Shown: positions 1-24,963 of the stretch, one piece after another
How the letters are laid out: each line of letters starts with the position of its first letter
Position numbering within the stretch: position 1 is the first letter of the stretch
IMG/VR virus record: IMGVR_UViG_2778261009_000004
Direction: 5' to 3' (one strand)
DNA: 28,707 nucleotides
Origin: a virus
Taxonomy: Duplodnaviria; Heunggongvirae; Uroviricota; Caudoviricetes
Position numbers and translations under genes: made by a program
The notes under the pieces: model-generated
Told to the model about the DNA's origin: nothing
The model's database searches: none
Seen by the model: the letters and a program-made list of their open reading frames with translations, nothing else

Positions 1-148
1 CGTTCAGATCATCACTGCCGGGGACGTTCGTCGAGGCATGAAGATACCCCGCGCTCAGCGTGGACTGATGTTCAGACGCCCATGCAGGCGCACCGGATAC
101 GGCCAGACAAATGGCTGCGGACAAAATGGCGGCATAAAGTTTACGCAT
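1..148 (-). CDS. lom: Outer membrane protein Lom, N-terminal part (gene runs off the left edge of the window)
   Basis: Own translation of the minus strand from ATG at 148..146 gives MRKLYAAILSAAICLAVSGAPAWASEHQSTLSAGYLHASTNVPGSDDLN, a signal peptide plus mature N-terminus matching lambda Lom as remembered. RBS GAGAGG lies just upstream. Position directly after J is as in lambda. Confidence 0.85.
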   Translation of the reverse strand, partial: MRKLYAAILSAAICLAVSGAPAWASEHQSTLSAGYLHASTNVPGSDDLN

Positions 149-172
149 AATTACCTCTCGCTTTTCTGCAAT

Positions 173-196
173 AAAAAAGGCGTCATTTCTGACGCC
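173..196 (-). terminator. Putative intrinsic terminator between J and lom
   Basis: Minus-strand hairpin GGCGTCA-GAAA-TGACGCC followed by TTTTTT, between the J stop (215-217) and the lom start (148). Confidence 0.4.
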
Positions 197-214
197 CGTT
201 CTGGGTTATAAAAT

Positions 215-3616
<3,402 letters not shown>

Positions 3617-3673
3617 TCACGCTCCATAAACGACAAAACCGCCCGCAGGCGGTTTCACATAAAACATTTTGCA

Positions 3674-4321
3674 TCAGCGGCCAATCACCACAACCTGACC
3701 ACCGTCCCCTTCATCTGCCGTGCTGATCTCCTGAGAAACCACACGAGACCCCACACGCATTTCACCGTACAGAACAGGCAGAACATTGCCCTGGGCAACC
3801 ATGTTATCCAGTGACGAGAAATACGTGTTCTGTTTGCCGTTATCTGTACTGGCTGCCGTGGGCGTCCTGGCTTTCGGTGCCAGCATCTGCGCCACACCAC
3901 CCAGGATCATACTGGCCCCTGCTGCATACAGACCCGATACAGCCGCGGCCCCCAGCCAGCCAACAGGGTTCCACCATGCCACCGCAATCAGCGCCGCACC
4001 CAGCACCGCCTGAAACACACCGCCACTTTTGGCACCCGCCAGACGCGGAACGACGTGGATCACGGCACCATTTGCCAGCGGTTCATTAAGACGGGCAGAT
4101 AATTCATTTTCGCCTGCATCACGCCCGGAAATGCGCACCTGATACCAGCCCTCATTCAGTTTCTGGCGAAACGACGGAAGCTGTGTGGCCAGCGCCCGGA
4201 TGGCTTCGGCCCCCGTTTTCACACGAAGGTCGATGCGGCGGCCAAATCGTTGTAAATCCCCGTAAAGGCAGATGCGTGCCATGCCCGGTGACGCCAGAGG
4301 GAGTGTGTGCGTCGCTGCCAT
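3674..4321 (-). CDS. I: Tail tip assembly protein I
   Basis: 215-aa ORF whose N-terminus (MAATHTLPLASPGMARICLYGDLQRFGRRIDLRVKTG) and C-terminus (SQEISTADEGDGGQVVVIGR) match lambda I as remembered. Its 5' end overlaps the 3' end of K by about 100 nt in another frame, as in lambda. Confidence 0.9.
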   Translation of the reverse strand: MAATHTLPLASPGMARICLYGDLQRFGRRIDLRVKTGAEAIRALATQLPSFRQKLNEGWYQVRISGRDAGENELSARLNEPLANGAVIHVVPRLAGAKSGGVFQAVLGAALIAVAWWNPVGWLGAAAVSGLYAAGASMILGGVAQMLAPKARTPTAASTDNGKQNTYFSSLDNMVAQGNVLPVLYGEMRVGSRVVSQEISTADEGDGGQVVVIGR

Positions 4322-4962
4322 TTGTCGGTATACCTCTCTCGTTTGCTCAGTTGTTCAGGAATATGGTGCAGCAGCTCGCCGTCACCACAGTAAATGGCGG
4401 CATGATTCGGCACCGATGAACCAAAACAGCACAGCAGCACATCGCCCGGCTGCGCCGCTGACAACGGCACCTGATACAGCCCTGTGGCCTCCAGATTATC
4501 CAGATAGAGATTCTGACCGTGACGCCACCAGTCATCCTCGCGATGAAAATCCGGCATCTCAATCCCCGCCAGATGGTAAGCATCCCGGAACAGCGTGTAA
4601 CAGTCCGTCACCCCGTGCTCAAAGCGCCGCCCGGTAAGATGTGGCACACAGCGGAACTTGTGAATCGCCCCCCGGCAGACCAGCCACCACGGCAAATCAC
4701 TCTGCACCTGCAGCCGCCGGTCGGCCTCACTCAGCCAGGGCAGACCACCGGGGTGGCTGTGGACCAGTGCCACAATCTCACCCTGCATCTCTGCCTGCAG
4801 CCAGTCCTCCGGAGCCATCCGGAAATAATCCTCCGGCTCACCGGAAATATTCACGCAGGGAAAATATCTTTCCCCCTCCGGCGCCCTCACCACGAAGCCG
4901 CACGACTCCGCTGGCGCACATCGCCGGGCGTGCGCCAGAATCGCTGATTCTGTCTCTGTCAT
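4219..4962 (-). CDS. K: Tail tip assembly protein K (JAB/MPN metallo-protease motif plus NlpC/P60-like domain)
   Basis: 247-aa ORF with HSHPGG...SEAD (JAMM-like) motif; located between L and I. Classical lambda K annotation is shorter (about 199 aa, from memory), which would correspond to a start near 4818. The longer ORF fills the gap back to L. Confidence 0.85.
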   Translation of the reverse strand: MTETESAILAHARRCAPAESCGFVVRAPEGERYFPCVNISGEPEDYFRMAPEDWLQAEMQGEIVALVHSHPGGLPWLSEADRRLQVQSDLPWWLVCRGAIHKFRCVPHLTGRRFEHGVTDCYTLFRDAYHLAGIEMPDFHREDDWWRHGQNLYLDNLEATGLYQVPLSAAQPGDVLLCCFGSSVPNHAAIYCGDGELLHHIPEQLSKRERYTDKWQRRTHSLWRHRAWHASAFTGIYNDLAAASTFV

Positions 4963-4967
4963 GGGAT

Positions 4968-5666
4968 TTACTGCGAAAGTTTGTTAATGGAAAGGAAGCC
5001 GCCAAAGTTGCCGACGTTATTGCGAAACTTACAGCCGCTCAGGCATTTGCTGCATTTATCCTTCGTGATATCGGACGTCGGCTGGTCATATTCATCCGCG
5101 ACCGCCGGACCGCTATAACCGCACTCATCGCCGCGATAGGTCCAGGTGCAGGTGTTGGCCAGCATGATACACCCCGGAAAAACAGAGCCATCCGTTTCAG
5201 TCGGTGTGGACAGTACAAAAGAGACACTGACCGCGCTCAGTTCGCTGCACTGCTCGATGCGCCAGCGGCTGATCACCTCCTGCTCCGGATCGGCTTCGCT
5301 GTTTCCGTTGACGAAGTTCACCGCATCCAGAAAACGGGCGTAAACCTTACGCCTGACCACCGTTCCGCCGACCAGACTCTGCAGGTCTTCCGCCATCCCG
5401 GTGACCATGCCGTGCAGGTTAGAGACCGTCAGTGTCGGACGGGCAGCACTGCCCTTACCGTTCAGTTCAAATCCCGTCCCCTGAATGGGATACGGCTGAT
5501 ACTGCCACCCCTGCCAGGTGACCGGCTCACCTTTTTCGTTCTGCTCATTACAGAAAAAATAACGTTCACCACCGACCTCTGTCAGATCGATTTCCCAGAG
5601 CACCACCTGGGCTGACTGAGTGAGGCGTGTCGTCTCATGATGTGTTTCCTGTGGAATATCCTGCAT
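4968..5666 (-). CDS. L: Tail tip assembly protein L
   Basis: 232-aa ORF, same length as lambda L; MQDI...VVLWEIDLTEVGGERYFFCNE...CxxC motifs. Confidence 0.9.
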   Translation of the reverse strand: MQDIPQETHHETTRLTQSAQVVLWEIDLTEVGGERYFFCNEQNEKGEPVTWQGWQYQPYPIQGTGFELNGKGSAARPTLTVSNLHGMVTGMAEDLQSLVGGTVVRRKVYARFLDAVNFVNGNSEADPEQEVISRWRIEQCSELSAVSVSFVLSTPTETDGSVFPGCIMLANTCTWTYRGDECGYSGPAVADEYDQPTSDITKDKCSKCLSGCKFRNNVGNFGGFLSINKLSQ

Positions 5667-5675
5667 CAGAGCCTC

Positions 5676-6005
5676 CTATGCCACGACCTGTTCAAAATCT
5701 GCCGTTATGGTTACCCACAGCGCCCCTACGCTTGCCGACCATTTACGACAAACCACCCTGATCGGCTTCCAGTCATAAGGTGGCGTCCACTGAAATGCGC
5801 GGACGCCACCGTGCCGTTCCAGAAAGGCTTTTAAAGATGGGTGTTCACATTTACGAACACGTATCGTCACGCTGTAAGTCGACAACTGGTTATTCAGTCC
5901 CGCCGCACGACGCTGTTCATAACCATCGCCCAGCTTCACTGTCACCACTTTCGGCTCTGATACCACATTCATATCCGGGCGCACTTTCCAGTGAAACGTC
6001 TCCAT
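5676..6005 (-). CDS. M: Tail tip protein M
   Basis: 109-aa ORF, same length as lambda M; FxWKV N-terminus and FEQVV C-terminus. Start overlaps the H stop by 1 nt. Confidence 0.9.
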   Translation of the reverse strand: METFHWKVRPDMNVVSEPKVVTVKLGDGYEQRRAAGLNNQLSTYSVTIRVRKCEHPSLKAFLERHGGVRAFQWTPPYDWKPIRVVCRKWSASVGALWVTITADFEQVVA

Positions 6006-9000
6006 TACCGATATGCTCCACTTAACCGACCACCATCACGGGCCTGCTGTTGCATAAAGTCCGCTGCCGCTTTTTTCCCAAGGTCATAAACCACCTTCAG
6101 GGCAGCCGGACCTATCTGCCCGTTCGTGCCATCGTTATTGATCTCGATGTTGTACTGCGGGGCAAACATCGCCATACCTGAACCACCAATATCCGCCACA
6201 ACCCCCAGCTTACCGTCAGCACCACGACGCAGAGGCAGAATGGCTTCAGGTCCCGCTTCACCCATCACACCCGCGCCTTTTGCAAAAGCAAAAAACGTCG
6301 GACGGTTAACCACCGTGCCACTGTAACGACTCAAATCAGCAGACTGATAAATCCCCCCATTGGCATTCAGGGAAAGGCTGCTGAGATCAAATCCCAGTAC
6401 ACTGCCAATCCCTTTTATCGATTTCATCATGGTTGCCTGCGCCAGGATTTTCGCCATATCTGACAGCACAGAAGAGGTGAAGGATTTGAAATTGAGTTTG
6501 CCGGTAGTGACAAAAGTTGCCAGGCCATTTCCCATGTTGCTGAAGGCTGACGAGAACACCTGTTCTGCTGTTCCTGCCGTATTATCTGCATCCACGGTAA
6601 AATCCTGAAATGCACGCAGGACTCCGTTTTTCCAGTTACCCTGCACAACTTCAAGCTGTTGCCAGTAACGGCGATTCTCATTCAGTTGTCGGTTCAGGCT
6701 CTCCGTCAGCGCCTGCTCGGCCTTTCTGTAGTCATCCGTGTTATATGTCCCTTTCTGCTCACTATCCCGCCTCAACTGCTCCAGCTGTTGCTGGTATTTC
6801 TGGCGAAGACTCAGTTGTACCTGATATCGCTGCCGCTGCTGATCACCCATACCCACCGTGGCGATATCCAGGTCATGTTGCTGACGCTGAGCGCGCTCTT
6901 CTTCAGCCAGTTGACTGGTCAGCTGAATTGTTTTTTTCTTCAGATCGTTGAGTGCCGTCTGTTTCTGAAGCTCCTGCTGTTTTACATCCAGCAGCGTCAG
7001 TGCCTGAATCAGTTCATCTTTACGGGCCAGCACACTCTTTTCATCTGCCGTCAGTTTTTTCCCGTCCAGATCGCTGATGCGCTGCTGCAGAGCCAGAAGC
7101 TGTTTATGCGCTTCTGTCATCTTTTCAGTGGCAATGCCTGCTGACTGTCTTGCAGCAGCAATCTGTCCTTCCACCTGTGCCTGTTGCTGACTGTACTGCA
7201 GCAATAACCGGGTGGCCTCATCATTACGGGTTTCGCGTGTTTTTTTCTTACCGGATGCCAGGGCTTTCTCGTAACGTTCATTTTCACGTTGTATCGCTGC
7301 ATCCCTGACAGCCTGATCGGCGTACTGCATGGAATTAATACGCGCAATTTCACGCTGATGTCGTGCTGCTTCCGTTTCATTCATCCGGTTCAGTGCAGCA
7401 TTTTCAGCATTACGTCGTTTCTGTTGCTCCTGATAATTCCGCTCTGCCTGCTCTTTTGCATCCTGCAAATCCTTCTTGCGTTTTTTCTCCTGAAGCTCGT
7501 TAAGACGCTGCTGATCGTACTCAACCTGAGAAGATGATGCCGTCCAGGGGAGTCTTTTCGCCCGCGACACTTTCTCCTGTAAAGCGGAAATCTGTTCATC
7601 CAGCGAGTCTTCACGACCAATATTCATGGCCGCATCCCAGAAACGACTCCATAAATCAGACAGATACTTCAGCGTACTGCCCAGCGCATTGAGGTTATTA
7701 TCAATATCCGCAGTACGCCGACCGGTTTCCTCTGCCAGTGCAGACATGGCTATCCGTGCCGCATCACTGGACCGCCCCTGTTCCCCAAGGACGCGTATCT
7801 GCTCAAGCTGAGTGGCAGTAAGAAAATGCAGCTCATTGTCCAGAGCCTTCGCGGCATTTACAGGATCATCCTTCAGCCGCTTAAACTGATTTATGGTATC
7901 GCTGACCGACTGGCCAACCGATCGCTCCATCTGTGCGGCAGCTCTCGCCACCATACCGATATCGTTTCCACGAAATGCACCACTCCCCACCACCTGAGCC
8001 AGCGCACCGGCTGCAGCATGTTGCGTAATACCATTCCCGGAAATAGCACGACTGAGCGTCCACAGCTGCCCGGCAGTGACTCCGGCATAATGCCCCGTCA
8101 GCGACAACTGGCGGTTAAATTCTTCCCCCTCCTTCTGACCATCATACCAGGCTTTACCCAGACCATAGACGGCCGCGGCAATACCGCCAATAACCCCGCC
8201 CAGCATCATGCCTTTCGGTGACATCAGTGTGTCTATCCATCCGGCACGGTTAGCCAGCGTTATCCCGGATCCCCTCAGCGCATCTAAATTGCCGCGAGCC
8301 AGTTCACCTATCAGAACGCCTATCTCCTGGCGGGCCGCTGCACTTTTCAGACCCAGCGAATGCGTGGCTTTTCCTGCCTGCTCCATTTTGCGGATATACA
8401 CTTCTGCAGCACTGCTTACCCCCAGCTGGGCAGGCTTAGCACGAAGCAACTCAGAAGAAGAAAGATTCTGGCGGGTTGCCTGCTCTTTAAGCTGACGGAT
8501 AAACGCCACTTTCTGTCGGGTAGCCTCTGCCTCAGCCTGCGTAAGAACACCGGTTTTCGCCGTAACCTCAGAAATCAGCGCCAGATAATCCTGCTGACCA
8601 ATCCCGCCACTGTTTCTGGCCTGTCGGATCTGCTGCTGAATACGCTGTAATTCCTGCAGTCCCGCACTGGCCTGTTTCACACTGTCAATCTGACGATAAA
8701 ACGCGGCAGCCGCTTTATCCTGAGCCTCCGCCAGAGCCATGGCCTGCGCCTGTTCCTCGCGCATTTTCTGGCTCAGTGCCTCCATACGCTGGCGGGTTTG
8801 CTCCACCTCGCGGGCCATGCGTTCATGAGCCTGTGCGCTCTTCTCCACCGTCTGCGCATGGACGGATGCGGCTGTTGCAGCCGAAGAAGCCGCCTGCATT
8901 GTCTGCCGGGCGGCCTGAGTCTGACGCTCCATAAAACGCTGCATACGGGCAGAAGACCGTTCTGCATCGCTGGCTGCACCATTCAGAAGGTTTTTGATAC

Positions 9001-9070
9001 GGGGAATTTCATTTTTAAACTCTGCCGCATCAATCCCCAAATCAATGACCAGGTTGGCTATCTGGTCCAT
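6005..9070 (-). CDS. H: Tail tape measure protein (H-like)
   Basis: C-terminus INNDGTNGQIGPAALKVVYDLGKK...DGGRLSGAYR matches the lambda H C-terminus as remembered. Long coiled-coil, Q/A/E-rich centre and a Gly-rich hydrophobic segment. The track ORF begins at a TTG (9100); the first ATG (9070, MDQIANLVIDL...) has SD GGAGGTG 7 nt upstream and is the likelier start. About 1021 aa, versus about 853 aa for lambda H. Confidence 0.9.
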   Translation of the reverse strand: MDQIANLVIDLGIDAAEFKNEIPRIKNLLNGAASDAERSSARMQRFMERQTQAARQTMQAASSAATAASVHAQTVEKSAQAHERMAREVEQTRQRMEALSQKMREEQAQAMALAEAQDKAAAAFYRQIDSVKQASAGLQELQRIQQQIRQARNSGGIGQQDYLALISEVTAKTGVLTQAEAEATRQKVAFIRQLKEQATRQNLSSSELLRAKPAQLGVSSAAEVYIRKMEQAGKATHSLGLKSAAARQEIGVLIGELARGNLDALRGSGITLANRAGWIDTLMSPKGMMLGGVIGGIAAAVYGLGKAWYDGQKEGEEFNRQLSLTGHYAGVTAGQLWTLSRAISGNGITQHAAAGALAQVVGSGAFRGNDIGMVARAAAQMERSVGQSVSDTINQFKRLKDDPVNAAKALDNELHFLTATQLEQIRVLGEQGRSSDAARIAMSALAEETGRRTADIDNNLNALGSTLKYLSDLWSRFWDAAMNIGREDSLDEQISALQEKVSRAKRLPWTASSSQVEYDQQRLNELQEKKRKKDLQDAKEQAERNYQEQQKRRNAENAALNRMNETEAARHQREIARINSMQYADQAVRDAAIQRENERYEKALASGKKKTRETRNDEATRLLLQYSQQQAQVEGQIAAARQSAGIATEKMTEAHKQLLALQQRISDLDGKKLTADEKSVLARKDELIQALTLLDVKQQELQKQTALNDLKKKTIQLTSQLAEEERAQRQQHDLDIATVGMGDQQRQRYQVQLSLRQKYQQQLEQLRRDSEQKGTYNTDDYRKAEQALTESLNRQLNENRRYWQQLEVVQGNWKNGVLRAFQDFTVDADNTAGTAEQVFSSAFSNMGNGLATFVTTGKLNFKSFTSSVLSDMAKILAQATMMKSIKGIGSVLGFDLSSLSLNANGGIYQSADLSRYSGTVVNRPTFFAFAKGAGVMGEAGPEAILPLRRGADGKLGVVADIGGSGMAMFAPQYNIEINNDGTNGQIGPAALKVVYDLGKKAAADFMQQQARDGGRLSGAYR

Positions 9071-9769
9071 AACGCACACCTCCGGAAATACCTTCCCCAA
9101 GATGCATCAGTTCTTCGTCCGTTCGCTCCGGTATCCCGTTCTCTTCCGGTAAAAGGCTGAAATCAGCCACCGCAGCATCACTGCTACCGGACACCATTCT
9201 CACGATCAATGCCTTCAGCGAGGCAAACTGCGCATCCATCCACACATCACTGAAGCTCTGCATCCGGAAATAATCGCCCCACTCACCAAGCTCAGTGGCC
9301 GACATTTCCGACAGCATCCGCCGCCAGTCTGCCCGCCGGAACTCCCGGGCAAGCCGCATGACAAACTGCATTTCCCGCGTCAGGACTTTTCCGGCGTCAG
9401 CACCTCATGCTCCAAATCCCCGGCATTCTCAATGACTCCCATACCGCTCAGCGACAGAACCATCTCCGCCCCCGCTCCCAGGGCATCATACGACCATGTT
9501 GTAATAACGGATGCGCAAAGCGTCTCAACATCCTGAGACTGTTCCGCATTCCACAGTGAGCGGGAAACCAGCCAGGCATTGATATCCATCCCCATCCGCA
9601 GAAAAGCAATCTGTCGTTCAGCCTCCGGCAGTTCTCCCTCTTCGGCATCAAACTTTGCCGTTCGCTGCTGAACAAACGCCAGATATTCAATTCTCTGCAG
9701 CCCGGACAGCTCACTGAGCACCACGGACTGCTTTTCATAATTAAACGTGCCCTGTTTCAGAAACATCAT
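9042..9769 (-). CDS. T: Tail assembly chaperone G-T fusion made by programmed -1 ribosomal frameshift (T segment is 9042..about 9404 in the -1 frame)
   Basis: The ORF at 9042..9371 is in the -1 frame relative to G and stays open upstream to 9404, overlapping the last 8 codons of G. The G-frame sequence just before its stop is CTG ACG CCG GAA AAG TCC TGA, with GGAAAAG at the position of the lambda G GGA AAG slip site. Confidence 0.6.
9380..9769 (-). CDS. G: Tail assembly chaperone G
   Basis: Lambda G-like N-terminus MMFLKQG...LSELSGLQRIEYL from ATG 9769 with SD GGTGGAG. The track ORF start at 9808 would encode the terminator hairpin and is probably an artefactual extension. Confidence 0.85.
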   Translation of the reverse strand: MMFLKQGTFNYEKQSVVLSELSGLQRIEYLAFVQQRTAKFDAEEGELPEAERQIAFLRMGMDINAWLVSRSLWNAEQSQDVETLCASVITTWSYDALGAGAEMVLSLSGMGVIENAGDLEHEVLTPEKS

Positions 9770-9782
9770 GTTCTCCACCTGC

Positions 9783-9806
9783 AAAAAAGCCCCGGATAAC
9801 CGGGGC
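9783..9806 (-). terminator. Intrinsic terminator / attenuator directly downstream of major tail gene V
   Basis: Minus strand: perfect 7-bp stem GCCCCGG-TTAT-CCGGGGC followed by TTTTTT, 20 nt after the V stop and just before the G SD. Confidence 0.55.
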
Positions 9807-9826
9807 AAATGATGAGTATCGTCCTG

Positions 9827-10576
9827 TTAACCTGCGGCGCTGACAGCCACCGCAGCCACTGCCACAAAATCGCCGTCAGAAGTCATGCCCACAATGCTGA
9901 CACTGCCCTGCTTCACGCCTTTCACCGTGGCCACAAGCCCGTTCAGGGTCACCGTGGCAGTCTGTGGATCTGTCGAATGCACACTGATCGCTTTGTCACT
10001 GGCTCCGTCAGGTTTTACTGTAAAGGTCAGCGTGGTGGTTGCTCCCACTTTTACACTGGCAGATGCCGGTGCCACCGTCAGCCCGGTAACGCTCACTGTT
10101 TCAGTGCCTTCCTCTGCCAGATACGGACGCCCCACACCGCTGATTTTCACTGTGCGGGTCATCACGTCTTTTGAGGCAATGGTTTTACCCAGTGAGCTCA
10201 GCCAGCCACGGAAAACATCAACAGTGCCGTTGGGATATTTGATACGAAACGCGCAGACTTCACCGGAGTCGAACAACTGAACCAGTTTTTTCTGCCCGCT
10301 GTCACCCGGACGCCAGGCCAGCGTCGCCGAAGTATCACCGACGGATTTCTGCCCCTGGGTTGTCGTTTTCCAGTCTGCATCTTCATCATCGAGATAAGTG
10401 TCATCTTCTGCATCAGCGGTCATTTCGCCAGGTTGCAGATCCTTCACCATCGCAAGACGCAGCCAGTCAGTGTCCGATAAAGGGTTCGCAAACGCATCGC
10501 CCTTGCCGGTGTACATCCAGAACGTCGTTCCCGCACCTTTCGTTTTTGCCAGTGGATTTGGTGTGGTCATTGCCAC
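9827..10576 (-). CDS. V: Major tail protein V with C-terminal Ig-like (Big_2-type) domain
   Basis: 249-aa ORF in the V position (lambda V is about 246 aa); C-terminal ...VTGLTVAPASASVKVGATTTLTFTVKP... Ig-like repeat. Confidence 0.9.
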   Translation of the reverse strand: MAMTTPNPLAKTKGAGTTFWMYTGKGDAFANPLSDTDWLRLAMVKDLQPGEMTADAEDDTYLDDEDADWKTTTQGQKSVGDTSATLAWRPGDSGQKKLVQLFDSGEVCAFRIKYPNGTVDVFRGWLSSLGKTIASKDVMTRTVKISGVGRPYLAEEGTETVSVTGLTVAPASASVKVGATTTLTFTVKPDGASDKAISVHSTDPQTATVTLNGLVATVKGVKQGSVSIVGMTSDGDFVAVAAVAVSAAG

Positions 10577-10581
10577 CTCCT

Positions 10582-10995
10582 TTAATTCGTGTACGTGATC
10601 TGGTACGTGATTTCCGCCATCGCCCAGGTGGCCATCTCATTATCACGTTGATAGTTAAAACCGAGAGGGAGCAGGGTGTCGATGAGTCCGGAAAGTGCCG
10701 GTATATCATTCAGGGCCGGGAAAATGGTGCTCTCCATCCACATATCCAGCTCTGAATCCGGTGCCTGTGCCCGGATGAAGACAGCAATATGCAGAACAGC
10801 CTGCCAGTCATCTTCATCCGTCATTTTTCCGGTGTACTGAGCATCACTCAGCCACACCGCCACGGCAGGCAGTTCCTGCGCATCAATAAATGCCGGAAGC
10901 CCGTCAAAAAACGTGGCGCTGTCTCCACACTGTTCCCGAAGGCGTGCCAGTACGGCCTGGCGGATTTGTGTATGTCGGTTCATCGGGTCAGCCAT
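10582..10995 (-). CDS. U: Tail terminator protein U
   Basis: 137-aa ORF with ATFFDG...PAVAVWL...DSELDMWMES motif similar to lambda U. An alternative ATG at 10983 overlaps the Z stop in an ATGA arrangement. Confidence 0.85.
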   Translation of the reverse strand: MADPMNRHTQIRQAVLARLREQCGDSATFFDGLPAFIDAQELPAVAVWLSDAQYTGKMTDEDDWQAVLHIAVFIRAQAPDSELDMWMESTIFPALNDIPALSGLIDTLLPLGFNYQRDNEMATWAMAEITYQITYTN

Positions 10996-11558
10996 AACCT
11001 CAGTTGTTGTTTCAGTGCATACCCCAGCTGTTTCGGCATTTCCGCAGCAATAATGCGGTCGCGGGCATCTTCAAATGCCTGTGTCAGCGGTCCGGACAGC
11101 GGGACTTTCACCACATCAATGGGGTAACGATTTTTGCCATCAATACGCCGCATCACATGCCAGCGACCATTCGCCAGTTGCTGAATAAACGCATCCCGGA
11201 AAAGATATTTACCCACCTTCAGCACACTGCCACGGTACTGCAGTTTTCCACCACGCCGGGCCAGTCTGACCCGGGCTGTCCCCAGCTTAATAGCGGGCAG
11301 ATTGCCCCGGTTAACGCGGATCCTGGCCGTCATTTTTCCTGACGGACTGGCTTTAAACACCCGGACACGCTGACGTACCAGTTTCAGGGGGATCCCTTTC
11401 ACCTGGTTATCTCCCGCAACGGTATTCCCGGCAACCTGCCGGGTGGCGACCGAGACCGCTTTCTGTGCCACACGGTTTATCGCCCATGCGCTGGCCTGTG
11501 GCACCATACGGGTATCAAGGCTGTTCAGATTACGGATGGCATTCTCAAGCCCCTTCAT
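10980..11558 (-). CDS. Z: Tail completion protein Z
   Basis: 192-aa ORF, same length as lambda Z; position between FII-like and U. Confidence 0.85.
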   Translation of the reverse strand: MKGLENAIRNLNSLDTRMVPQASAWAINRVAQKAVSVATRQVAGNTVAGDNQVKGIPLKLVRQRVRVFKASPSGKMTARIRVNRGNLPAIKLGTARVRLARRGGKLQYRGSVLKVGKYLFRDAFIQQLANGRWHVMRRIDGKNRYPIDVVKVPLSGPLTQAFEDARDRIIAAEMPKQLGYALKQQLRLWLTR

Positions 11559-11569
11559 CCCACACCTCT

Positions 11570-11845
11570 TTACTCAATAAAGATCATTGGCTTACCGTTA
11601 AAACGTTCATGCCGTGTAACCGTCCATTGTTGTCCGTCATAAACAACGCGATCCCCGCGCCGTGGGCGGTATCCCGAAGAAAACACCACCAGAGAGACCG
11701 CAGGTCCGGACAGAGCATTCAGCTCTGCCAGTGTTTCTCCCGGGATCACAGTCATATCGACATCATTAATCGAGGCTGTCTTTCCCATCTTTCTAACCGT
11801 GATAGCATCCATACGCGCTGCCAGCCGGGAAAAGGGATCAGACAT
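11570..11845 (-). CDS. Head-tail joining protein (FII-like)
   Basis: 91-aa ORF; N-terminal MSDPFSRLAARMDAI and ...RRGDRVVYDGQQWTV resemble lambda FII motifs (MADFDNLFDAAIARA ... RRGDTLTIGEENFWV, from memory). Position immediately upstream of Z. Confidence 0.6.
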   Translation of the reverse strand: MSDPFSRLAARMDAITVRKMGKTASINDVDMTVIPGETLAELNALSGPAVSLVVFSSGYRPRRGDRVVYDGQQWTVTRHERFNGKPMIFIE

Positions 11846-12161
11846 TGAGTTTTACCGGCACTTCTTCTGCACTGGTTCCGGCATCTGCCCAGACAACCCC
11901 GACCAGCGGATCAGAGCCGCTGTTAGTCAGCTGAACTTTTCCGGACTTCAGATAAACCTTCTTACCCGTTTTCATGTCATCCGTTTTCAGCTTAGGCAGC
12001 ATAAACACACCTTCGGTCATGCCGTCGCCTGTTTCACCCTGTGGAATATCGGTCAGCGCCACCGCAAAAACATCGCCCACCTGCACCAGATCTCCGCTGC
12101 TGATGGCTGCACTGGCAACAATCGCCACCGTTTTTCCTTCTTCTACAAAATTCTTTGCCAT
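11838..12161 (-). CDS. DUF2190-like small capsid-associated protein (possible decoration/cement protein)
   Basis: ATG at 12161 (MAKNFVEEGKTV...) with SD GGAGA; small beta-rich protein immediately downstream of the major capsid gene. The track ORF is extended to 12206. Confidence 0.5.
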   Translation of the reverse strand: MAKNFVEEGKTVAIVASAAISSGDLVQVGDVFAVALTDIPQGETGDGMTEGVFMLPKLKTDDMKTGKKVYLKSGKVQLTNSGSDPLVGVVWADAGTSAEEVPVKLNV

Positions 12162-12204
12162 AACTGTCTCCGCACAGCCCCGTTCAGGGGCTGATTTCAG
12201 GTAC

Positions 12205-12225
12205 AAAAAAAGCCCTTACGGGCCA
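12205..12225 (-). terminator. Putative intrinsic terminator / attenuator downstream of the major capsid gene
   Basis: Minus strand GCCC-GTAA-GGGC (GNRA loop) followed by TTTTTTT, between the capsid stop (12248) and the next start (12161). Confidence 0.4.
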
Positions 12226-12247
12226 TCAGAGTTGTTGTCTGCGACGT

Positions 12248-14206
12248 TTACGCCGTACATTTCACCAGACCGCGGTGATCAACTGGCGCGACACCGGCGT
12301 CAATACGCACTTTCGTTGTCACGCCATCCACACTGAAGCCCTCCATCTGATCAATATATGGCGTATCCACACCGTTGAGATAAGCCACTTCAATCGTATC
12401 GGAGCCTTTTGACGCAGCCAGGTAGAAGGTGGTCTGGCTGTTATCATCAAGACGAGGCTCTGCAATAACGGTCGCAAAATCTTTCACCGGGTTAATAATA
12501 CCGGCGTTAATGTCAGCCCCCTTGACACTTGAGGAGCGAATGACCTGGTTAGCAACAGACTCCATCGCCGTCGGTACCAGTACGAACGCAGGACGAATAT
12601 TCAGATGACGCTCCCCCTCTTTCTGAACGCGCATCAACTGGCGGGCTTTATCCAGCGATGCCACGTCCATTGCCGCGCTCTCCAGTACGTTTGCATGTTT
12701 CGCTTTATCGAACAGACTTACATTATCTGTGGAGATTTTCGGGTTAGACGTCAGAATGGCATAAACCAGATCGGCAATAGTGGATTTCGCCGCACGGCCC
12801 AGTTTCATCGGGACATCGGTCAGCATATTCAGATCATCATTGATAATGGCCTGACGGGTGATACTGAACAGCTCGCCATAGGTCGCCAGTGCAATAGTGG
12901 CCTGTTTATCTCCGGTGGTGACGTATTTATATTCCGCCCCTTCACGCACCTGACGTAGAGCACTGAAGCCCCCCATACCCACACGATGGGCAATTTTAAA
13001 ATCAGACAACTGACCTTTCCGCGTCCACTGTTCATAGGTTTCAGGGGCATCTTCCCAGCCCTGCAGAATGGCTTTGTTCGCAACATCCAGCAGAATATTA
13101 CCGAAGTCAGACGTACTGTGTGTGAACGCCGCACCGACCATCTGCATCGGGTTATAACCGGAAACCCCAATACCCCGTTCAGTTAGTGACATACGGGCAT
13201 ATTCACGCAGGGTCATCCCGTTGTAGACATTATCACGTTCGGTTTTTTCAAATCCGGCACGCGCCATCAGCGCCTGGCGAATCCCGTCCCCCACAAAATT
13301 ACCGTTACCGGCATAAATATGAGCCGGGGTATTTTTATTGGATGGCGTGGACTCGCGCCCCATCTCGTTCAACAGCTTTTCACGGGCCTGCTCCAGCGAA
13401 CATTCAGGATCGGCAAGACACTGGGCCTGCAGCGTCTGATAACGCCCGCCAAACATGGCAAACAGATCATTAATACCGTTTACACGCGCTTTTTGCTCTG
13501 CCAGTACCTGCGCACGGATACTGTTTTCATCCACCACGGGTGCTGCTGCCTGCACTGGCGTCCGGGAGGCTGCAGGTTCATCATCCTGTACGCGTGGAGC
13601 ACTGTTGCGTGGCGGAGTAATCATGTTTCGAATGGATTCCGGCATCTTTTTAAATTCCTCTGTACGTTTTGACTGAATACATGCCATTGCCTTAACGGCT
13701 GGTGTCACCTGATCAGCAAATCCCTGTGCCAGACATTCGGCACCGGACATCCAGGTCTCATCCGCCAGCATGGCAGCAATTTCATCGGTGGTTTTCCCGG
13801 TTTTCTGTGCATAAGCGGGTAACAGAACCGCCTCAACTTTATCGAGCAGGTCGGCATAGGTGCGCATGTCCTCCGCATCACCGCCCGTAAAGCCAAATGG
13901 TTTATGAATCATCATGAAGGAGTTTTCCGGCATAATGACCGGGTTTCCCACCATCGCAATGACCGACGCCATTGACGCCGCCACACCGTCGACATAAACG
14001 GTAATGGACGCACCATGTGTTTTCAGTGCATTAAAAATGGCGATGCCTTCAAAGACATCGCCACCCGGTGAATTAATATGGAGATTAATGTGGGTGATAT
14101 CGCCCAGTGCATTCAGATCACTGATAAACTGCTTCGCTGTAACACCCCAGAAACCAATCTCGTCATAAATATAAATATCCGCGTCACTCTGGTGACCTGC
14201 CTGCAT
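12248..14206 (-). CDS. Prohead serine protease (ClpP/S49-like) fused in frame to a scaffold-like linker and an HK97-fold major capsid protein
   Basis: One uninterrupted ORF. N-terminal part DIYIYDEIGFWGV...INSPGGDVFEG...MMIHKP is ClpP-like; middle is a charged helical linker; C-terminal about 330 aa has HK97-type capsid motifs (...GYNPMQ...ITRQAIINDDLNML...). First ATG after the portal stop is 14206; the track ORF start 14467 overlaps portal. Confidence 0.8.
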   Translation of the reverse strand: MQAGHQSDADIYIYDEIGFWGVTAKQFISDLNALGDITHINLHINSPGGDVFEGIAIFNALKTHGASITVYVDGVAASMASVIAMVGNPVIMPENSFMMIHKPFGFTGGDAEDMRTYADLLDKVEAVLLPAYAQKTGKTTDEIAAMLADETWMSGAECLAQGFADQVTPAVKAMACIQSKRTEEFKKMPESIRNMITPPRNSAPRVQDDEPAASRTPVQAAAPVVDENSIRAQVLAEQKARVNGINDLFAMFGGRYQTLQAQCLADPECSLEQAREKLLNEMGRESTPSNKNTPAHIYAGNGNFVGDGIRQALMARAGFEKTERDNVYNGMTLREYARMSLTERGIGVSGYNPMQMVGAAFTHSTSDFGNILLDVANKAILQGWEDAPETYEQWTRKGQLSDFKIAHRVGMGGFSALRQVREGAEYKYVTTGDKQATIALATYGELFSITRQAIINDDLNMLTDVPMKLGRAAKSTIADLVYAILTSNPKISTDNVSLFDKAKHANVLESAAMDVASLDKARQLMRVQKEGERHLNIRPAFVLVPTAMESVANQVIRSSSVKGADINAGIINPVKDFATVIAEPRLDDNSQTTFYLAASKGSDTIEVAYLNGVDTPYIDQMEGFSVDGVTTKVRIDAGVAPVDHRGLVKCTA

Positions 14207-14219
14207 CCTGAACCAGGAA

Positions 14220-15728
14220 TTATTCTTCGGACTGGTCGTCGGTGTGCTGCGGCTCCTGTCGTTTCGTTGCGGCACTGCTGCCTCCTTTATCACTGGCCGG
14301 ATCGGTATCAAATACCAGATCCAGCTTGCGGTTTTCATCAATTTCGGCCTTGCGCCGACGTTTGACATCATCCGGATTACGACCACCTGCACGTACCCAG
14401 TCTGATTCTGTCGCCGCTCCACCACGAATCTGAATTTTCCAGGCCTCAGCCTCCTTAACAGGGTCAATCCACGGCATCACCGGTCCGGAATACACCGCGG
14501 TATACAGTGAAGAACGATCAAGATCGCGGGGTAGCCTGATAACACCGGATGCCACAGCCTGTTTCAGCCAGGCACGATACATCGGGCGGGTGACGGCACC
14601 AATAAACCAGTCCTGCAGGATCAGGTAGCCATCAGTGGATTCAACCAGCTCCTGACGCTGGGCGCTGTAAGTGCCGTTATAGTTGCGTGCCGTACTGGAA
14701 AAACTCAGACGACTGCCCGCCGCCACGGCACGCAACTGACCATTACGAAAAGTTTCAAGGTTAGGATTGGGACGATCCGACTTCACCATTCCGATTTCTT
14801 CGCCGGGTTTCAGATCGTCGTAAATAATGCCTGGCTGAATGGTAAGCTCGCGTTCATTCTCCTTGCTGCCATTACCATCCGGTTCATAGCTCTGCCCGTC
14901 GCCTTTCCGGATGTACATCCCCAGAGCAGCGGCGATCCTTGCTGCAGTCAGCTCAGAATCTTCATACTCTTTCAGGGCACTGAGGCGGATCAGCACACCG
15001 GACAACAAAGACGTCCCGCGCATCTGGTGCAGACGGCGAACAAATTTAAGATGCAGCATTCGCTCTGCATCCACTTCTTTGGTTTCCATCTGCCGCCCGG
15101 ATACGGGACGGCTTTTATACACCAGATATTTTTCGGGACGCCCCCAGTCATCAACAAACACGCCCTGATTCAGCCTGTTGCTCTCATCACTGGTCATGGG
15201 AATAAAGTCCGGCTCGAGCGCCTCCAGCCAGAAATGAACACCGGCAGAAGGCGTCAGGCTGTTTATGCGCCCGGAAACCATCTGGGCAAACACCTCACCA
15301 TCGCGCAGCCAGGTACGCAGCATCAGACGTTCCAGCATCGGACGGGTAAACTGCCCGGTGACTTCCGGACTGACAGACCATTCACTCCATCGGGTGCGTA
15401 TCTCCGCTGCCAGATCACGGGCAATGGCCCCATTGCGTAATACCGGATGTGGCTCGACAATAATCCCGTTTTTCCCCACCACCCGTTCTTCCAGCTTGTC
15501 AAATACACCAATAACCAGATCGTGGTTGTTATCAAGGTAACGGGCCTGCTCACGTAACGACACGGCCCCGTACTGGCTTAACTGGTCGGCAGTTCGGTTT
15601 TCCCGCCGGGCTTTGTGTGTCCGTGTCGTTTTTACGGCCTCATAAGCCTGGATCACCGCACGGGAACGCAGCCTTGCCGCTTTCCATCCTGGTGAAAAAA
15701 CGCCAATCACATCATCAAGAATTGCCAT
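14220..15728 (-). CDS. Portal protein (lambda B-like family)
   Basis: About 500 aa, located between the W-like gene and the protease-capsid gene; acidic C-terminus. ATG 15728 overlaps the W stop (TGATG); the track start 15800 is a longer extension. Confidence 0.85.
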   Translation of the reverse strand: MAILDDVIGVFSPGWKAARLRSRAVIQAYEAVKTTRTHKARRENRTADQLSQYGAVSLREQARYLDNNHDLVIGVFDKLEERVVGKNGIIVEPHPVLRNGAIARDLAAEIRTRWSEWSVSPEVTGQFTRPMLERLMLRTWLRDGEVFAQMVSGRINSLTPSAGVHFWLEALEPDFIPMTSDESNRLNQGVFVDDWGRPEKYLVYKSRPVSGRQMETKEVDAERMLHLKFVRRLHQMRGTSLLSGVLIRLSALKEYEDSELTAARIAAALGMYIRKGDGQSYEPDGNGSKENERELTIQPGIIYDDLKPGEEIGMVKSDRPNPNLETFRNGQLRAVAAGSRLSFSSTARNYNGTYSAQRQELVESTDGYLILQDWFIGAVTRPMYRAWLKQAVASGVIRLPRDLDRSSLYTAVYSGPVMPWIDPVKEAEAWKIQIRGGAATESDWVRAGGRNPDDVKRRRKAEIDENRKLDLVFDTDPASDKGGSSAATKRQEPQHTDDQSEE

Positions 15729-15940
15729 CAGAACCTCGCCAGCCGGTACCCGGGATGCCCCCGTCGTCGTGTAATCAGAGCCGCAAGGCGGCGCTCCCAC
15801 TCCTGCCGTCCCTGCCGGATCTCAGATAAGTTTTCCATGGTCATCTGCTGACCATTAAAGGTGACGGATTTTCCGTCCAGCACCGCCATTTCAGCTTCCG
15901 TATAACGCTGAATCATGGCTTCGATATCATTCTGGTTCAT
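15728..15940 (-). CDS. Head-to-tail joining protein W-like
   Basis: About 70 aa; C-terminal ...LITRRRGHPGYRLARF resembles the lambda W C-terminus (...RRRGPAGFYV, from memory). ATG at 15940 overlaps the terminase stop (ATGA). Order terminase-W-portal as in lambda. Confidence 0.7.
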   Translation of the reverse strand: MNQNDIEAMIQRYTEAEMAVLDGKSVTFNGQQMTMENLSEIRQGRQEWERRLAALITRRRGHPGYRLARF

Positions 15941-18039: not shown

Positions 18040-18533
18040 TACTCCTCCTGCTGTAATTCCTCCTCATCATCCGCACCTGCTTCAGTCACCCGCAGGGCTA
18101 TCTGATCGCGCAGATCATCAATAATGGACTGAACACGGCTCACAGCGGCAGGCTGCAGACCGCAGTCACGTTCAAGAATATCCGGTAATGTCTCCAGCAC
18201 CTGCACGACCGCTTTTGCCCAGATGGCAAACTCCCGTCTGACATCACTGGCCGGAATGAGTTGTGCCGTTTCCTGTTCGAACTTAAGACGCTCACGTTCA
18301 GACTGATACCAGGCTTTGCGCTCATGCGCGTCCATTTCGCCTTCTGCAACCGGCGGTGGTAATGCCAGAAATGCCGACACAATATCAACCACCCGATAAA
18401 GCTTGAGGTTGCTTTCATGCCCCCCTGCAACGGGTAGATTTTGCAGCCTTGCCGCAGCAGTCTGGCGATGTACACCTGACAATGCCGCCAGTTGACTGAT
18501 ATTCAGCGTCAGATTTTTTAACTCTCGATCCAT
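18039..18533 (-). CDS. Terminase small subunit (Nu1-like, N-terminal HTH)
   Basis: 164 aa; N-terminal LNISQLAALSGVHRQTAAARL helix-turn-helix and acidic C-terminus; immediately downstream of the cos-like site. Confidence 0.8.
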   Translation of the reverse strand: MDRELKNLTLNISQLAALSGVHRQTAAARLQNLPVAGGHESNLKLYRVVDIVSAFLALPPPVAEGEMDAHERKAWYQSERERLKFEQETAQLIPASDVRREFAIWAKAVVQVLETLPDILERDCGLQPAAVSRVQSIIDDLRDQIALRVTEAGADDEEELQQEE

Positions 18534-18702
18534 ACCCGCTCCAGAATGTTTTAAACATGCATCTTGCGAACAACTTTAGGCAAACGGTGTTAGTGATGAA
18601 CAAAAAACAATCAGAATCGACACCATAAAAATAAAACCACTGTAATATCAATCAATTACAGTAGTGGTGATGACGAATAAAATTTCAAAAACTAGCCTTT
18701 TT

Positions 18703-18722
18703 CCGCGACGCTCCCGCCCCGT
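18703..18722. other. Putative cos site (cosN core with predicted 12-nt cohesive end GGGCGGGAGCGT, minus-strand orientation, 18708..18719)
   Basis: Minus strand reads ACG GGGCGGGAGCGT CGCGG. Lambda reads ACG GGGCGGCGACCT CGCGGG (from memory): flanks identical, core differs in 5 positions. Located about 170 nt upstream of the Nu1-like gene, with AT-rich (cosB-like) DNA in between. Confidence 0.5.
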
Positions 18723-19085
18723 GGTAGGGACCCCCACTGGGAGGACCCGACAGCCTGACAACCGTTACGAGCATCTGAAACAGAGCTTTACATAATGGCA
18801 TGGGGATAATTCAGAAGGACATCACAGCATGCCCACACAAATTAGTGTGAGTGTCCTGTTTCTTACTACGCGCAGGACTGACGAGCATGAGGGGAAAATA
18901 CGCGAACCGAAATGCCTTATCTTCAGAAATGCAGCCGGCATCCGAACTGGACGATATTGTAAATTCACCTAAATACGAGGCATTACTGTAGTTGAATTGC
19001 AGTACTGTATTAGCCTTACAGTGACAGAATACGATATTGACTCTGTCACTTGTGAAATGGTCAGAATGGTTAGCAGTTATGGTGA

Positions 19086-20212: not shown

Positions 20213-20232
20213 AAGCTCCCGAAGGAGCCTTC
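20213..20232 (-). terminator. Putative terminator downstream of cspI
   Basis: Minus strand GGCTCC-TTCG-GGAGC followed by TTTTTTGC. Confidence 0.35.
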
Positions 20233-20435
20233 ATTTTCACTTTCTTAAATCTAACGACAGATGGCTAACATTTAAGTATTGTGAAATATTATCAAATGTA
20301 ATCATCATTGATTTACAAAAGATACATTTTGCCCCGAAAGGATTTCTGTCAGAAACATCAAAAGATGATGTTCTATACTGAGAACCATGGCAACACGGGC
20401 ATCTAAAGTGAATATGGTTTGTAATATTTTCTACC

Positions 20436-20651
20436 TCAAAGTGCCACTACATGAACAGCTGCAGGGCCTTTAGGTCCGTTCTCAATACCAAATTCGACTT
20501 CCTGATTCTCAGTTAACGTTTTGAAATCGTTGCTCTGAATAGCTGAGAAATGCACAAACACATCTTTGCTACCATCTTTCGGCGTGATGAAACCAAAACC
20601 TTTTTCAGGGTTAAACCATTTCACTAAACCAGTCATTTTGTTAGACATCAT
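20436..20651 (-). CDS. cspI: Cold-shock protein CspI
   Basis: (M)[70 protein letters not shown], matching E. coli CspI as remembered. Confidence 0.9.
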
Positions 20652-22956: not shown

Positions 22957-23019
22957 TTGATTTTATTAGTAACAAGTATTTTTTATATTTTAATAATATA
23001 TTTAAAGCAGATAATAAAA

Positions 23020-23037
23020 AACCCGCCTGAGCGGGTT
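23020..23037. terminator. Intrinsic terminator hairpin (mainly minus-strand orientation)
   Basis: AACCCGC-CTGA-GCGGGTT with an A/T run on the flanks; on the minus strand the hairpin is followed by TTTTTATTAT. Confidence 0.45.
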
Positions 23038-23319
23038 TGAGATTGTGGTGCTTTTTGTGGGAGTCATCCACTTACGCACTTTGTTTTGCGATGCCAGCAG
23101 TTAGCTTCTGCTGTGAAACTATTCATGCAGCAAACCTGCACTTCACCACAATGGTTAGCATACTTTTCCTGATTAAGATTTTGCCAAATATGCTGGCCAT
23201 TGTTTCATGTATTGGACCTCCTTACTTTTTATTAAAGAGATCCAATATTCAATACTCTGTCCGTATCTCTACTCAGGCATCAGCCTTCTTCGTTATCGTA
23301 TACAGACGAGCGATGAATT

Positions 23320-23535
23320 TTAATCAGTAATGATGACATTTGCTGCTGCAGGACCTTTAGCACCACTCTCTATAGAGAAGGTAACCTTTTGACCTTCAAA
23401 TAAGGTTCGATAATTATCATTCTGAATCGCAGAAAAATGCACAAACACATCTTTACTACCATCAACAGGAGAAATAAAGCCGAAACCTTTATCAGCGTTA
23501 AACCATTTTACTAAACCAGTCATTTTATTTGACAT
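23320..23535 (-). CDS. cspB: Cold-shock protein CspB
   Basis: [71 protein letters not shown], matching E. coli CspB as remembered. Confidence 0.9.
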
Positions 23536-24050: not shown

Positions 24051-24082
24051 CAATATCTCTATTGCCCCATTTAAAGCACAAA

Positions 24083-24102
24083 AACCCGCTTATAAGCGGG
24101 TT
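24083..24102. terminator. Bidirectional intrinsic terminator (candidate tR' for the late operon leader; also 3' of the cspF-like gene)
   Basis: AACCCGC-TTATAA-GCGGGTT followed by TTTTCTACTTTTTT on plus; on minus it is followed by a T-rich run. About 110 nt downstream of the Q stop. Confidence 0.5.
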
Positions 24103-24150
24103 TTCTACTTTTTTCTAAACGTCGGATACACAAAGCCCATCGTTGAGAAA

Positions 24151-24179
24151 ATCTTATCCATGTTTTTTGAAAAATGCAA
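24151..24179 (-). promoter_or_regulatory. Candidate late promoter (PR'-like) immediately downstream of Q
   Basis: Minus strand: -35 TTGCAT (24179..24174), 17-bp spacer, -10 TAAGAT (24156..24151), followed about 50 nt later by the terminator hairpin. Pattern match only. Confidence 0.3.
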
Positions 24180-24210
24180 ACATCATGTCGCCATCTTCAG
24201 CAAAAATCAT

Positions 24211-24963
24211 TTATCTCGTCACCTTCCTCAATTGCGCTTCCGCGTATGCTTCTTCCTGCCAGCACTTTGTTACCAGTTTACCAATGACGTCCGCATACCC
24301 CTTATACCACTGATAATCGGTCAGGTCTGGTACCAGCTTCTGGACATGACGTCGTGCCAGCGTGGTCGGTAAACGACTAAACCGGTTTCCATTACAACGC
24401 CCACAAATCTTATATACCGGTACGCCATGAAACCGGGTTCTTTTTTCATCCAGAACAATCCCTTTACCCTTACACCCTCTGCACGCTGTGCTGACTTCGC
24501 CCTTACCATGGCAATGCTGACATAGTTCCTTTACCCATTCTTCCTTGATTACAGATTCCCCGCGTCTGTAGTGTTTCACCACTTCGCGCAATACATTATA
24601 AAATCCCGTACCTGAACAATGCTCACAGCGAGCCTTACTTGCCGCAGACCTGGAGTAATCAGCAAAGGCAAAATTCACGAGGTAAGGAATAATCTGTAAC
24701 CGGATTTCTTCACTCAATTTGTTCAATGTCGGGTTATCCAGTGCCATCGCGTAATTTAGCAGGCCTTCAATCGCAAACTGAGGGTCCTGAACACCAACTT
24801 TTGCCAGAAATAAGGCCAACCCAAGTGGTGCTTTCGACTGCACCATCCCCTGCGCTGCCATTACATCCGTAATTGTTAAACAACCGGTGCCTGTCGCTGG
24901 AGCGTCATCGCTCAATTTTGGAGATTTTGGGGAGTAATATTTTGGTAAGGCTTCAAGGTTCAT
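24211..24963 (-). CDS. Late-gene antiterminator Q (Qin quuQ-type, four CxxC pairs)
   Basis: 250 aa; CEHCSGTG...CQHCHGKG...CRGCKGKG...CGRCNG zinc-binding motifs; located immediately upstream of the late region. Confidence 0.8.

Follow-up and report, generated by a model that had tools for sequence, protein, structure and literature searches.

In the late region of phage T7, the leaky terminator T-phi lies right after capsid gene 10 within a long co-directional transcription unit and skews expression to the capsid gene. In another class of elements, intercistronic hairpins stabilise mRNA, as described for REP sequences in malE-malF, for Rhodobacter puf and for E. coli papBA, where a stable hairpin just past the most expressed cistron allows the upstream segment to outlive the rest of the transcript. 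A third system, the lambda pR'-tR'/Q circuit, uses a terminator that stops unmodified RNA polymerase (RNAP) and is read through by Q-loaded RNAP. In addition, terminator hairpins with a U-tract in lambdoid late or structural regions can give rise to stable Hfq-bound RNAs such as StxS and PasB.

Hairpins have also been marked within the structural operons of individual phages. For example, the record of mEp460 (JQ182728) lists a 'rho-independent terminator' at 6334..6353, after the protease/scaffold-capsid gene, and another at 8751..8774, after the major tail gene, and the mEp213 record marks a terminator after the capsid gene. The N15 record (NC_001901) describes as putative terminators the stem-loops that follow its decoration gene 7, capsid gene 8 and major tail gene 13, and the HK97 record (NC_002167) does so for sites immediately downstream of its major head gene 5 and of its major tail gene. 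In both phages, the site behind the major tail gene precedes the G/GT chaperone gene. As far as the records show, the terminators of mEp460, mEp213, HK97 and N15 are annotation only. A Cluster O mycobacteriophage likewise contains a stem-loop followed by TTTCT just past its major tail subunit gene (PMC4351075). Terminator-like hairpins after the V and capsid genes are an already known, ordinary lambdoid feature, and full-text literature searches returned general statements on leaky phage terminators and no test of internal late terminators in lambdoid phages. The value of comparing such sites is practical and conceptual rather than that of a discovery, and the pattern itself is a long-standing feature of annotation. 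Comparison turns a custom of annotators that goes back to HK97 and N15, both published in 2000, into a sharper and testable question, namely why head and tail modules that are unrelated to one another retain a hairpin behind their capsid, decoration and tail-tube genes, whether or not it carries a U-tract.

The sequence analysed here, called the window, is the whole 28,707-nucleotide stretch of a Caudoviricetes virus (IMG/VR record IMGVR_UViG_2778261009_000004). It belongs to a lambda-like prophage and shares 99% identity with mEp460, cdtI and Ayreon; for the 5.5 kb surrounding the hairpins, identity to vB_EcoS-569R4, Ayreon, phi458, mEp460 and cdtI is 98-99.4%. The late genes all lie on the minus strand, in the order Q, a csp moron, holin, DUF1327, lysozyme, Rz, a second csp, small and large terminase, portal, a ClpP-scaffold-capsid fusion, cement, Z, U, V, G, T, tape measure, M, L, K, I and J (215-3613). 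The ClpP protease-scaffold-major capsid fusion gene (12248..14206, minus strand, ATG at 14206) matches CLP_protease and Phage_capsid_4 and has the length of mEp460 gene 005, and the cement/decoration protein gene that follows it (11838..12161, minus strand, ATG at 12161) matches PF09956 (Phage_cement_2, E 9e-21). The major tail tube gene V (9827..10576, minus strand) matches PF16461 (Phage_TTP_12, E 6.4e-67) and Big_2; its open reading frame begins with a GTG at 10576, the mEp460 start being an ATG two codons further in (10570), and its homologue is named 'major tail protein' in the mEp460 and cdtI records. V is followed by the tail assembly chaperone gene G (9380..9769, minus strand; PF06894, Phage_TAC_2). 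Within the late operon of ~18 kb between terminase and J, only four gaps are longer than about 15 nt, and all four hold hairpins.

The two cold-shock protein genes of the late region (23304-23696 and 20390-20806, both minus strand; CSD, E about 1e-31) have leaders of the cspA-thermoregulator type (Rfam RF01766, 158.8 and 110.1 bits), and each is followed by a terminator of its own (23038..23019 and 20228..20215). This layout presumably resembles that of the Qin prophage of E. coli K-12 (quuQ, cspB/cspF, essQ, rrrQ, rzpQ, cspI). The two cspA leaders were the only matches when the whole window was searched against Rfam at the gathering score, with none at the hairpins.

The gap between V and G reads, on the minus strand, GCAGGT TAA (V stop codon at 9829-9827), 20 nt, a hairpin, T6, GCAGGTGGAGAAC and the ATG at 9769. 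The hairpin had been described in the initial annotation as a perfect 7-bp GC stem plus T6 located 20 nt past V, and this description is exact: its sequence, its folding and the mEp460 annotation identify an intrinsic-terminator-type element, GCCCCGG-UUAU-CCGGGGC plus U6 (9783..9806, minus strand; stem-loop at 9806-9789, U6 at 9788-9783), which ends 13 nt before the ATG. All seven pairs of the perfect stem are G-C, and the free-energy calculation that had been suggested as a check gave -16.2 kcal/mol (z -3.9); the site ranks first among the terminator-like sites in positions 1-19000. An initial scan of viral contigs for V returned loci that were 98-100% identical only, and is informative on microvariation rather than on diversity. 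Across 80 near-identical loci, the lower 5 bp of the stem and the T-tract (T6 or T7) are nearly fixed, and changes are confined to the two loop-proximal base pairs, where some of them still pair, as G.U.

The start of G can be placed with the help of the same region. The naive open reading frame of G starts at a TTG at 9808, inside the V-G hairpin, and the earlier proposal of a start at 9769 is borne out by several observations. A Shine-Dalgarno (SD) sequence, GGAG, occupies 9776-9773, 4 nt before the ATG at 9769; the PF06894 (TAC_2) profile alignment starts at residue 2 of G; and the start given for mEp460 is the ATG equivalent to 9769. In addition, the frame of the TTG-9808 extension is not conserved, because the length of the T-run varies among relatives (T5, T6 or T7, the T5 variants occurring in a wider set of loci than the near-identical one). 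The ATG at 9769 is thus supported as the true start of G by sequence comparison, and the annotation track that places it at 9808 should be corrected.

The capsid-cement gap, which measures 86 nt in the window, contains two hairpins. The first, hp1 (GGCCC-GUAA-GGGCU plus U7; 12205..12224, minus strand; stem-loop at 12224-12211, T7 at 12211-12205), begins 23 nt past the capsid stop codon (12250-12248) and is recognised from its sequence, from scans and from the mEp460 and mEp213 annotations. The sequence given earlier for this site, a GNRA-loop hairpin plus T7 directly after the capsid gene, is correct, GUAA being of the GNRA type, but its portrayal as a strong hairpin does not hold: the stem of four G-C pairs and one G.U is weak (-8.8 kcal/mol), and in a 56-nt context its folding (z only -0.4) is not distinguishable from that of shuffles. 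Moreover, a second and stronger hairpin in the gap had been overlooked. This element, hp2 (CAGCCCC-UGAAC-GGGGCUG; 12175..12193, minus strand), emerges from folding and from its conservation in relatives, has a 7-bp stem (-14.9 kcal/mol, z -3.9) without a U-tract, and ends 3 nt before the cement SD (GGAG, 12171-12168). The V-G hairpin and hp1 both have the features of intrinsic terminators, with a GC stem-loop on the transcribed strand, a U run directly 3' to it and a position outside coding sequence, and mEp460 contains the same two hairpins at homologous positions in DNA that is 96-99% identical.

A strict terminator pattern (a perfect stem of at least 6 bp with at least 5 GC, and at least 5 T in the next 6 positions) was compared with 100 dinucleotide shuffles and found 4 sites in the window (26772, 23038, 9806 and 196), with 0.04 expected per shuffle; a looser pattern (at least 4 GC pairs, at least 6 T in 7) adds 12223 and 20228, with 0.2 expected. 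All of the pattern-matched sites are intergenic and on the coding (minus) strand, and the placement of both the V-G hairpin and hp1 on the coding strand of a long co-directional operon is confirmed. It is hardly credible that the hairpins are chance or neutral leftovers without function, since 4-5 strict sites were observed where 0.04-0.2 were expected and since conservation and covariation extend across genera; the absence of a V-G hairpin from lambda and many relatives is what would speak for such a view.

The hairpins are not specific to the two most abundant structural genes, because the I-J and J-lom gaps hold similar ones. The I-J gap of the window (60 nt) contains AAACCGCC-UGCG-GGCGGUUU followed by a U-rich tail (DNA: AAACCGCC-TGCG-GGCGGTTT; 3628..3655, minus strand; -21 kcal/mol in context, z -2.8). 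The hairpin after J, GGGCGUCA-GAAA-UGACGCCU plus U5 (173..197, minus strand), is of the terminator type according to scans and folding and is annotated in mEp460 at 18380..18406. The consensus scan missed the I-J hairpin, probably since its Ts are absorbed into the stem. A comparable coding-strand hairpin precedes J in prophage PP6 of E. coli E2348/69, whose I-J gap of 240 nt (locus L169, 6262-6344 and 6430-6460) also encodes the Hfq-bound PasB on the opposite strand.

The effect of any such hairpin depends on the polymerase that reaches it. The late-gene antiterminator Q (24211..24963, minus strand) matches PF03589 (E 2.9e-54) and lies directly upstream of, and co-directional with, the lysis and structural genes. 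About 110 nt past its stop codon, a palindromic hairpin, AAAACCCGC-UUAU-AAGCGGGUUUUU followed by a U-run (DNA: AAAACCCGC-TTAT-AAGCGGGTTTTT; -20 kcal/mol, z -4.6), forms a candidate tR'. The candidate pR'/tR' region as a whole spans 24073..24180 on the minus strand, with the hairpin at 24104-24081, a -35 hexamer TTTGCA at 24180 and a -10 hexamer TAAGAT near 24156; the hexamers were picked by eye and are not listed by the promoter scan. From its sequence, this region looks as if it would give a short RNA resembling 6S or StxS. The window is like the lambda pR'-tR'/Q system in having Q and a candidate pR'/tR', but tR' is a promoter-proximal switch; located 11-14 kb downstream, the V and capsid hairpins cannot play such an on/off role. 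The window also resembles T7 in having a terminator directly past the major capsid gene in a late unit, yet T-phi is experimentally established and is read by T7 RNA polymerase with no antitermination factor, whereas the window would be transcribed by host RNAP with Q, which should suppress termination.

PF03589 is the Q-lambda family, and Q-loaded RNAP has a nozzle that keeps terminator hairpins from forming, an effect that persists for tens of thousands of nucleotides (PMC9388147). In such phages, late transcription depends on read-through of terminators (PMC7547250), and expression of J in the window requires passage of the transcript through the candidate tR', the terminators of both csp genes, hp1, the V hairpin and the hairpin of the I-J gap. 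Because a Q-lambda-family antiterminator heads the operon and Q-loaded RNAP precludes hairpins, substantial attenuation during lytic growth is not the default expectation. The proposal in the initial annotation that both hairpins are partial terminators or attenuators thus stands as to terminator anatomy and position, but its dose-lowering effect in lytic growth does not follow, given Q upstream. Terminator-like hairpins inside a lambdoid late operon should be read in the light of Q antitermination and not as simple stops.

That the hairpins are true lytic attenuators, such that a substantial fraction of transcripts ends at each one and mRNA falls stepwise for G/GT, the tape measure, the tip genes and cement, is in our judgement unlikely. 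Speaking for it, the stoichiometry of the virion proteins decreases in the order capsid, V, J, in which their genes follow one another in the operon; the anatomy of the hairpins is canonical and the V hairpin looks efficient. Leaky terminators that balance phage gene expression are on record for T7, and ONT-cappable-seq has revealed them in LUZ7 (PMC9163698). Against it, Q-lambda-family antitermination processively suppresses hairpin formation in the exit channel, and a transcript that reaches J must in addition have cleared the candidate tR' and the terminators behind two csp genes. Further evidence on both sides comes from the comparison of relatives.

For the V-G gap, six annotated phages were drawn on, together with a scan of one genome per species that was queried with an alignment of eight V proteins and yielded 80 loci. 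Where V and G were both present, the region between them was compared, in all 46 distinct sequences. The gap is at least 35 nt long in 25 of the 46, and 23 of these 25 contain a stable GC hairpin, with stems that differ widely (GCCCCGG, GCCACA, AAAGCCCC, GGCTCC, CGGGGC, GGGGGC, GCCCCAC and others). A real T-run follows the hairpin in only eight of the 23, namely four variants of the window hairpin plus those of Providencia, Ewingella, Kluyvera and Klebsiella; the other 15, N15 included, have none. The remaining 21 distinct gaps, of 0-23 nt, are without a stable hairpin and include those of lambda, where V and G are separated by only 15 nt, phi80, mEp213 and Stx phages. Since termination needs a U-tract, which 15 of the 23 hairpins do not have, and since 21 of the 46 gaps are too short, termination cannot be the general function of the V-G slot, which also counts against lytic attenuation. 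The hairpin is moreover dispensable for a lambda-type tail, because lambda, phi80, mEp213 and Stx phages do without it.

The exact V-G gap of lambda is common to 14 loci. About twelve loci (L118-L129, L132 and others) are attributed to implausible hosts, Neobacillus, Kitasatospora, Shewanella and Leeuwenhoekiella among them, and match the query at 55%, the same value as lambda V; most of them lie on short, low-coverage contigs, and they are probably lambda DNA contamination of assemblies.

The capsid-cement gap is far more uniform. It was compared in 43 loci of this head type (38 distinct sequences, with capsid C-terminal identity down to 67%) from Escherichia, Salmonella, Citrobacter, Enterobacter, Rahnella, Proteus, Providencia, Morganella, Xenorhabdus and Sodalis. 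In all 43, the gap of 75-92 nt has a common layout consisting of GCCC-N4-GGGC, T7-8, a linker, hp2 and GGAG. The GCCC-N4-GGGC plus T7-8 of hp1 is kept in all 38 distinct gaps; its stem and T-run are essentially invariant while its loop varies (GTAA, TGAC, GAAA, ATCA, TGAT and others), so the GNRA loop of the window is incidental, and the invariant stem gives no covariation information. The 3' untranslated region between the capsid gene and hp1 shows no conservation among these relatives.

By contrast with the fixed stem of hp1, hp2 is present in all 38 distinct sequences as 25 different stems of 6-10 bp (-9.7 to -19.4 kcal/mol) with compensatory changes; it starts 8-13 nt past the T-run and ends 0-4 nt before a GGAG-type SD wherever an SD was found (35 of 38). 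These figures come from hairpins extracted from each sequence and compared with its shuffles, of which 49 in 7600 fold as well (mean z -3.5), and several Watson-Crick pair types occur at four of six loop-anchored positions. Alignment with MAFFT and RNAalifold recovered hp1 but just 3 pairs of hp2, owing to register shifts, and a covariance model had hp1 100% paired and hp2 70% paired after partial realignment, with partners slid by +1 scoring about as well.

The linker between the hairpins (12194-12204 in the window, minus strand; alignment columns 54-64, consensus ATACCTGAAA) is conserved across genera nearly as well as the hairpins themselves. An RNase E site, binding of S1 or Hfq, or pairing with the SD are possibilities for its role. 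A promoter, with TATACC as its -10, was considered and rejected, as the window itself has TGTACC there. It is possible, though doubtful, that the gap as a whole is an undescribed and widely conserved cis-regulatory RNA module of ClpP-capsid-fusion heads in Enterobacterales prophages, in which hp1, U7, the linker UAUACCUGAAA, hp2 and the SD would steer the processing of the RNA or its binding by Hfq and give capsid and cement mRNA stabilities and translation rates of their own, and which would not be a plain terminator. The conserved hp1-linker-hp2 module is the only part of this locus that may deserve follow-up, and the bipartite capsid-cement element offers a clean, conserved target for experiment.

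Heads of the lambda type, whose strongest hairpin of this kind is found between D and E, genes for equimolar proteins, were compared as well. A terminator-like D-E hairpin with a T-run of at least 6 occurs in 15 of 18 distinct sequences; that of lambda is canonical and followed by T7 (lambda 6077-6137; L001 1078-1138). A hairpin after E is found in 17 of 17, mostly without a T-run, as in lambda itself, where ATGGCCC-TTCG-GGGCCAT has a UUCG loop and no T-run (lambda 7158-7204; L001 2159-2205). HK97 and N15 have hairpins at the same two slots as the window, with unrelated sequences, and their post-tail hairpins are without a U-tract. In these comparisons, the slots go with genes for virion proteins of high abundance, and they do so in modules unrelated to each other.

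These data return to lytic attenuation with mixed results. In its favour, the U-tracts of hp1 and the D-E hairpins are invariant, and a minimal 4-bp hp1 stem in all 38 lineages looks as if tuned to be leaky. On the other hand, such hairpins separate near-equimolar pairs, capsid and cement or lambda D and E. Cement proteins are presumably needed in about capsid-equimolar amounts, so the earlier rationale that the hairpin lowers the dose of the downstream product is a poor one at the capsid-cement gap.

The V-G hairpin and hp1 are real and under selection. The reading that we favour, at about even confidence, treats them as true RNA hairpins of the intrinsic-terminator type, maintained where the V and capsid cistrons end within a late operon under Q antitermination, with a mixed role: they would stop Q-free transcription, be mostly read through in lytic growth and provide a protected 3' end for the upstream cistron. 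Anatomy, conservation, non-chance placement and the presence of Q are observed. In the proposed sequence of events, RNAP without Q would halt at the hairpins, keeping stray transcription of the lysogen out of the structural genes, and Q-loaded RNAP would mostly read through during lytic growth. The hairpin would then fold in the finished RNA and, together with a small residual termination and endonucleolytic processing, protect the V or capsid mRNA segment at its 3' end; this segment could outlast the downstream message and so skew expression to the abundant upstream protein. At the capsid gap, the weak hp1 with U7 and the strong hp2 set against the cement ribosome-binding site might form a processing and translation-insulation module, in which capsid mRNA would be capped at its 3' end and cement mRNA would carry a hairpin at its 5' end, with the SD left free.

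Two lines of evidence bear on the parts of this mixed role. The same slots hold hairpins without a U-tract (N15, HK97, lambda E-FI), which suggests a role of the folded RNA itself, and U7 is invariant in hp1 and the D-E hairpins, which shows that the U-tract is itself selected. Selection on the U-tract points to termination or Hfq binding rather than to simple blocking of exonucleases; the invariant tract fits a stop of unmodified RNAP, residual termination or Hfq binding. The class of mRNA-stabilising hairpins is best matched by hp2 and the U-tract-free hairpins of N15, HK97 and lambda E-FI, whereas the V-G hairpin and hp1 of the window carry full U-tracts. Retention of structure while sequence changes, which characterises that class, is found for hp2, and V-G stems are also many. 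Also counting against the mixed role, the 4-5 bp stem of hp1 would be a poor exonuclease barrier, and the absence of a V-G hairpin from lambda, phi80, mEp213 and Stx phages weighs in the same direction.

The first step of this sequence could also be the whole story, if the hairpins were fail-safe insulators only, stopping unmodified RNAP that starts at moron or spurious promoters in the lysogen or before Q is made, with no quantitative role in lytic growth. The late region does contain morons with expression signals of their own (the two csp genes with cspA-type leaders, and lom after J), and the strict terminators all lie on the coding strand, where Q would neutralise them in lytic growth. 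We nonetheless regard insulation alone as quite unlikely, since it leaves unexplained why the slots fall specifically after capsid, D, E and V in unrelated modules, why many of their occupants lack a U-tract and why hp2 is conserved.

Beside the mixed role, a post-transcriptional effect on the downstream gene or in trans has to be weighed, in which the hairpins uncouple or set translation of G or cement, or a 3'-UTR-derived Hfq-binding sRNA is released. The position of hp2, 0-4 nt before GGAG, would suit such a function, and relatives without a V-G hairpin have V-G gaps of 8-15 nt, as is typical when translation is coupled; prophage terminators also yield Hfq sRNAs, such as StxS from tR' (PMC7547250), and Pas sRNAs adjoin structural genes (PMC8550237). 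However, neither StxS, which derives from tR', nor PasB lies at the V-G or capsid-cement position, no sRNA has been reported at either, and an Rfam covariance-model search of 9700-12300 gave zero matches even at E<=10. Among sRNAs of structural operons, PasB alone was checked; it maps to the antisense strand of the I-J gap in E2348/69 PP6, and the idea that the window hairpins are 'Pas' prophage sRNAs was rejected for that reason. As for pairing of the CU of the linker with the SD, those columns are invariant in the alignment. Taken together, we consider a mainly post-transcriptional role very improbable.

Two minor observations concern the neighbourhood of the V-G hairpin. The mEp460 record marks a further 'rho-independent terminator' within gene T (9389..9406); the corresponding site in the window (9151-9168, minus strand), GGCTG-ATTT-CAGCC followed by TTTTACC, is weak, lies inside coding sequence and was missed by the scans. 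In addition, the sequence of the IMG/VR prophage L032 (2248-3510) diverges at a point exactly within the V-G hairpin loop, past GCCCCGGTT, and what comes next is, as its translation suggests, the C-terminal part of J; L032 would then have lost everything from G to most of J, one deletion endpoint lying in the hairpin.
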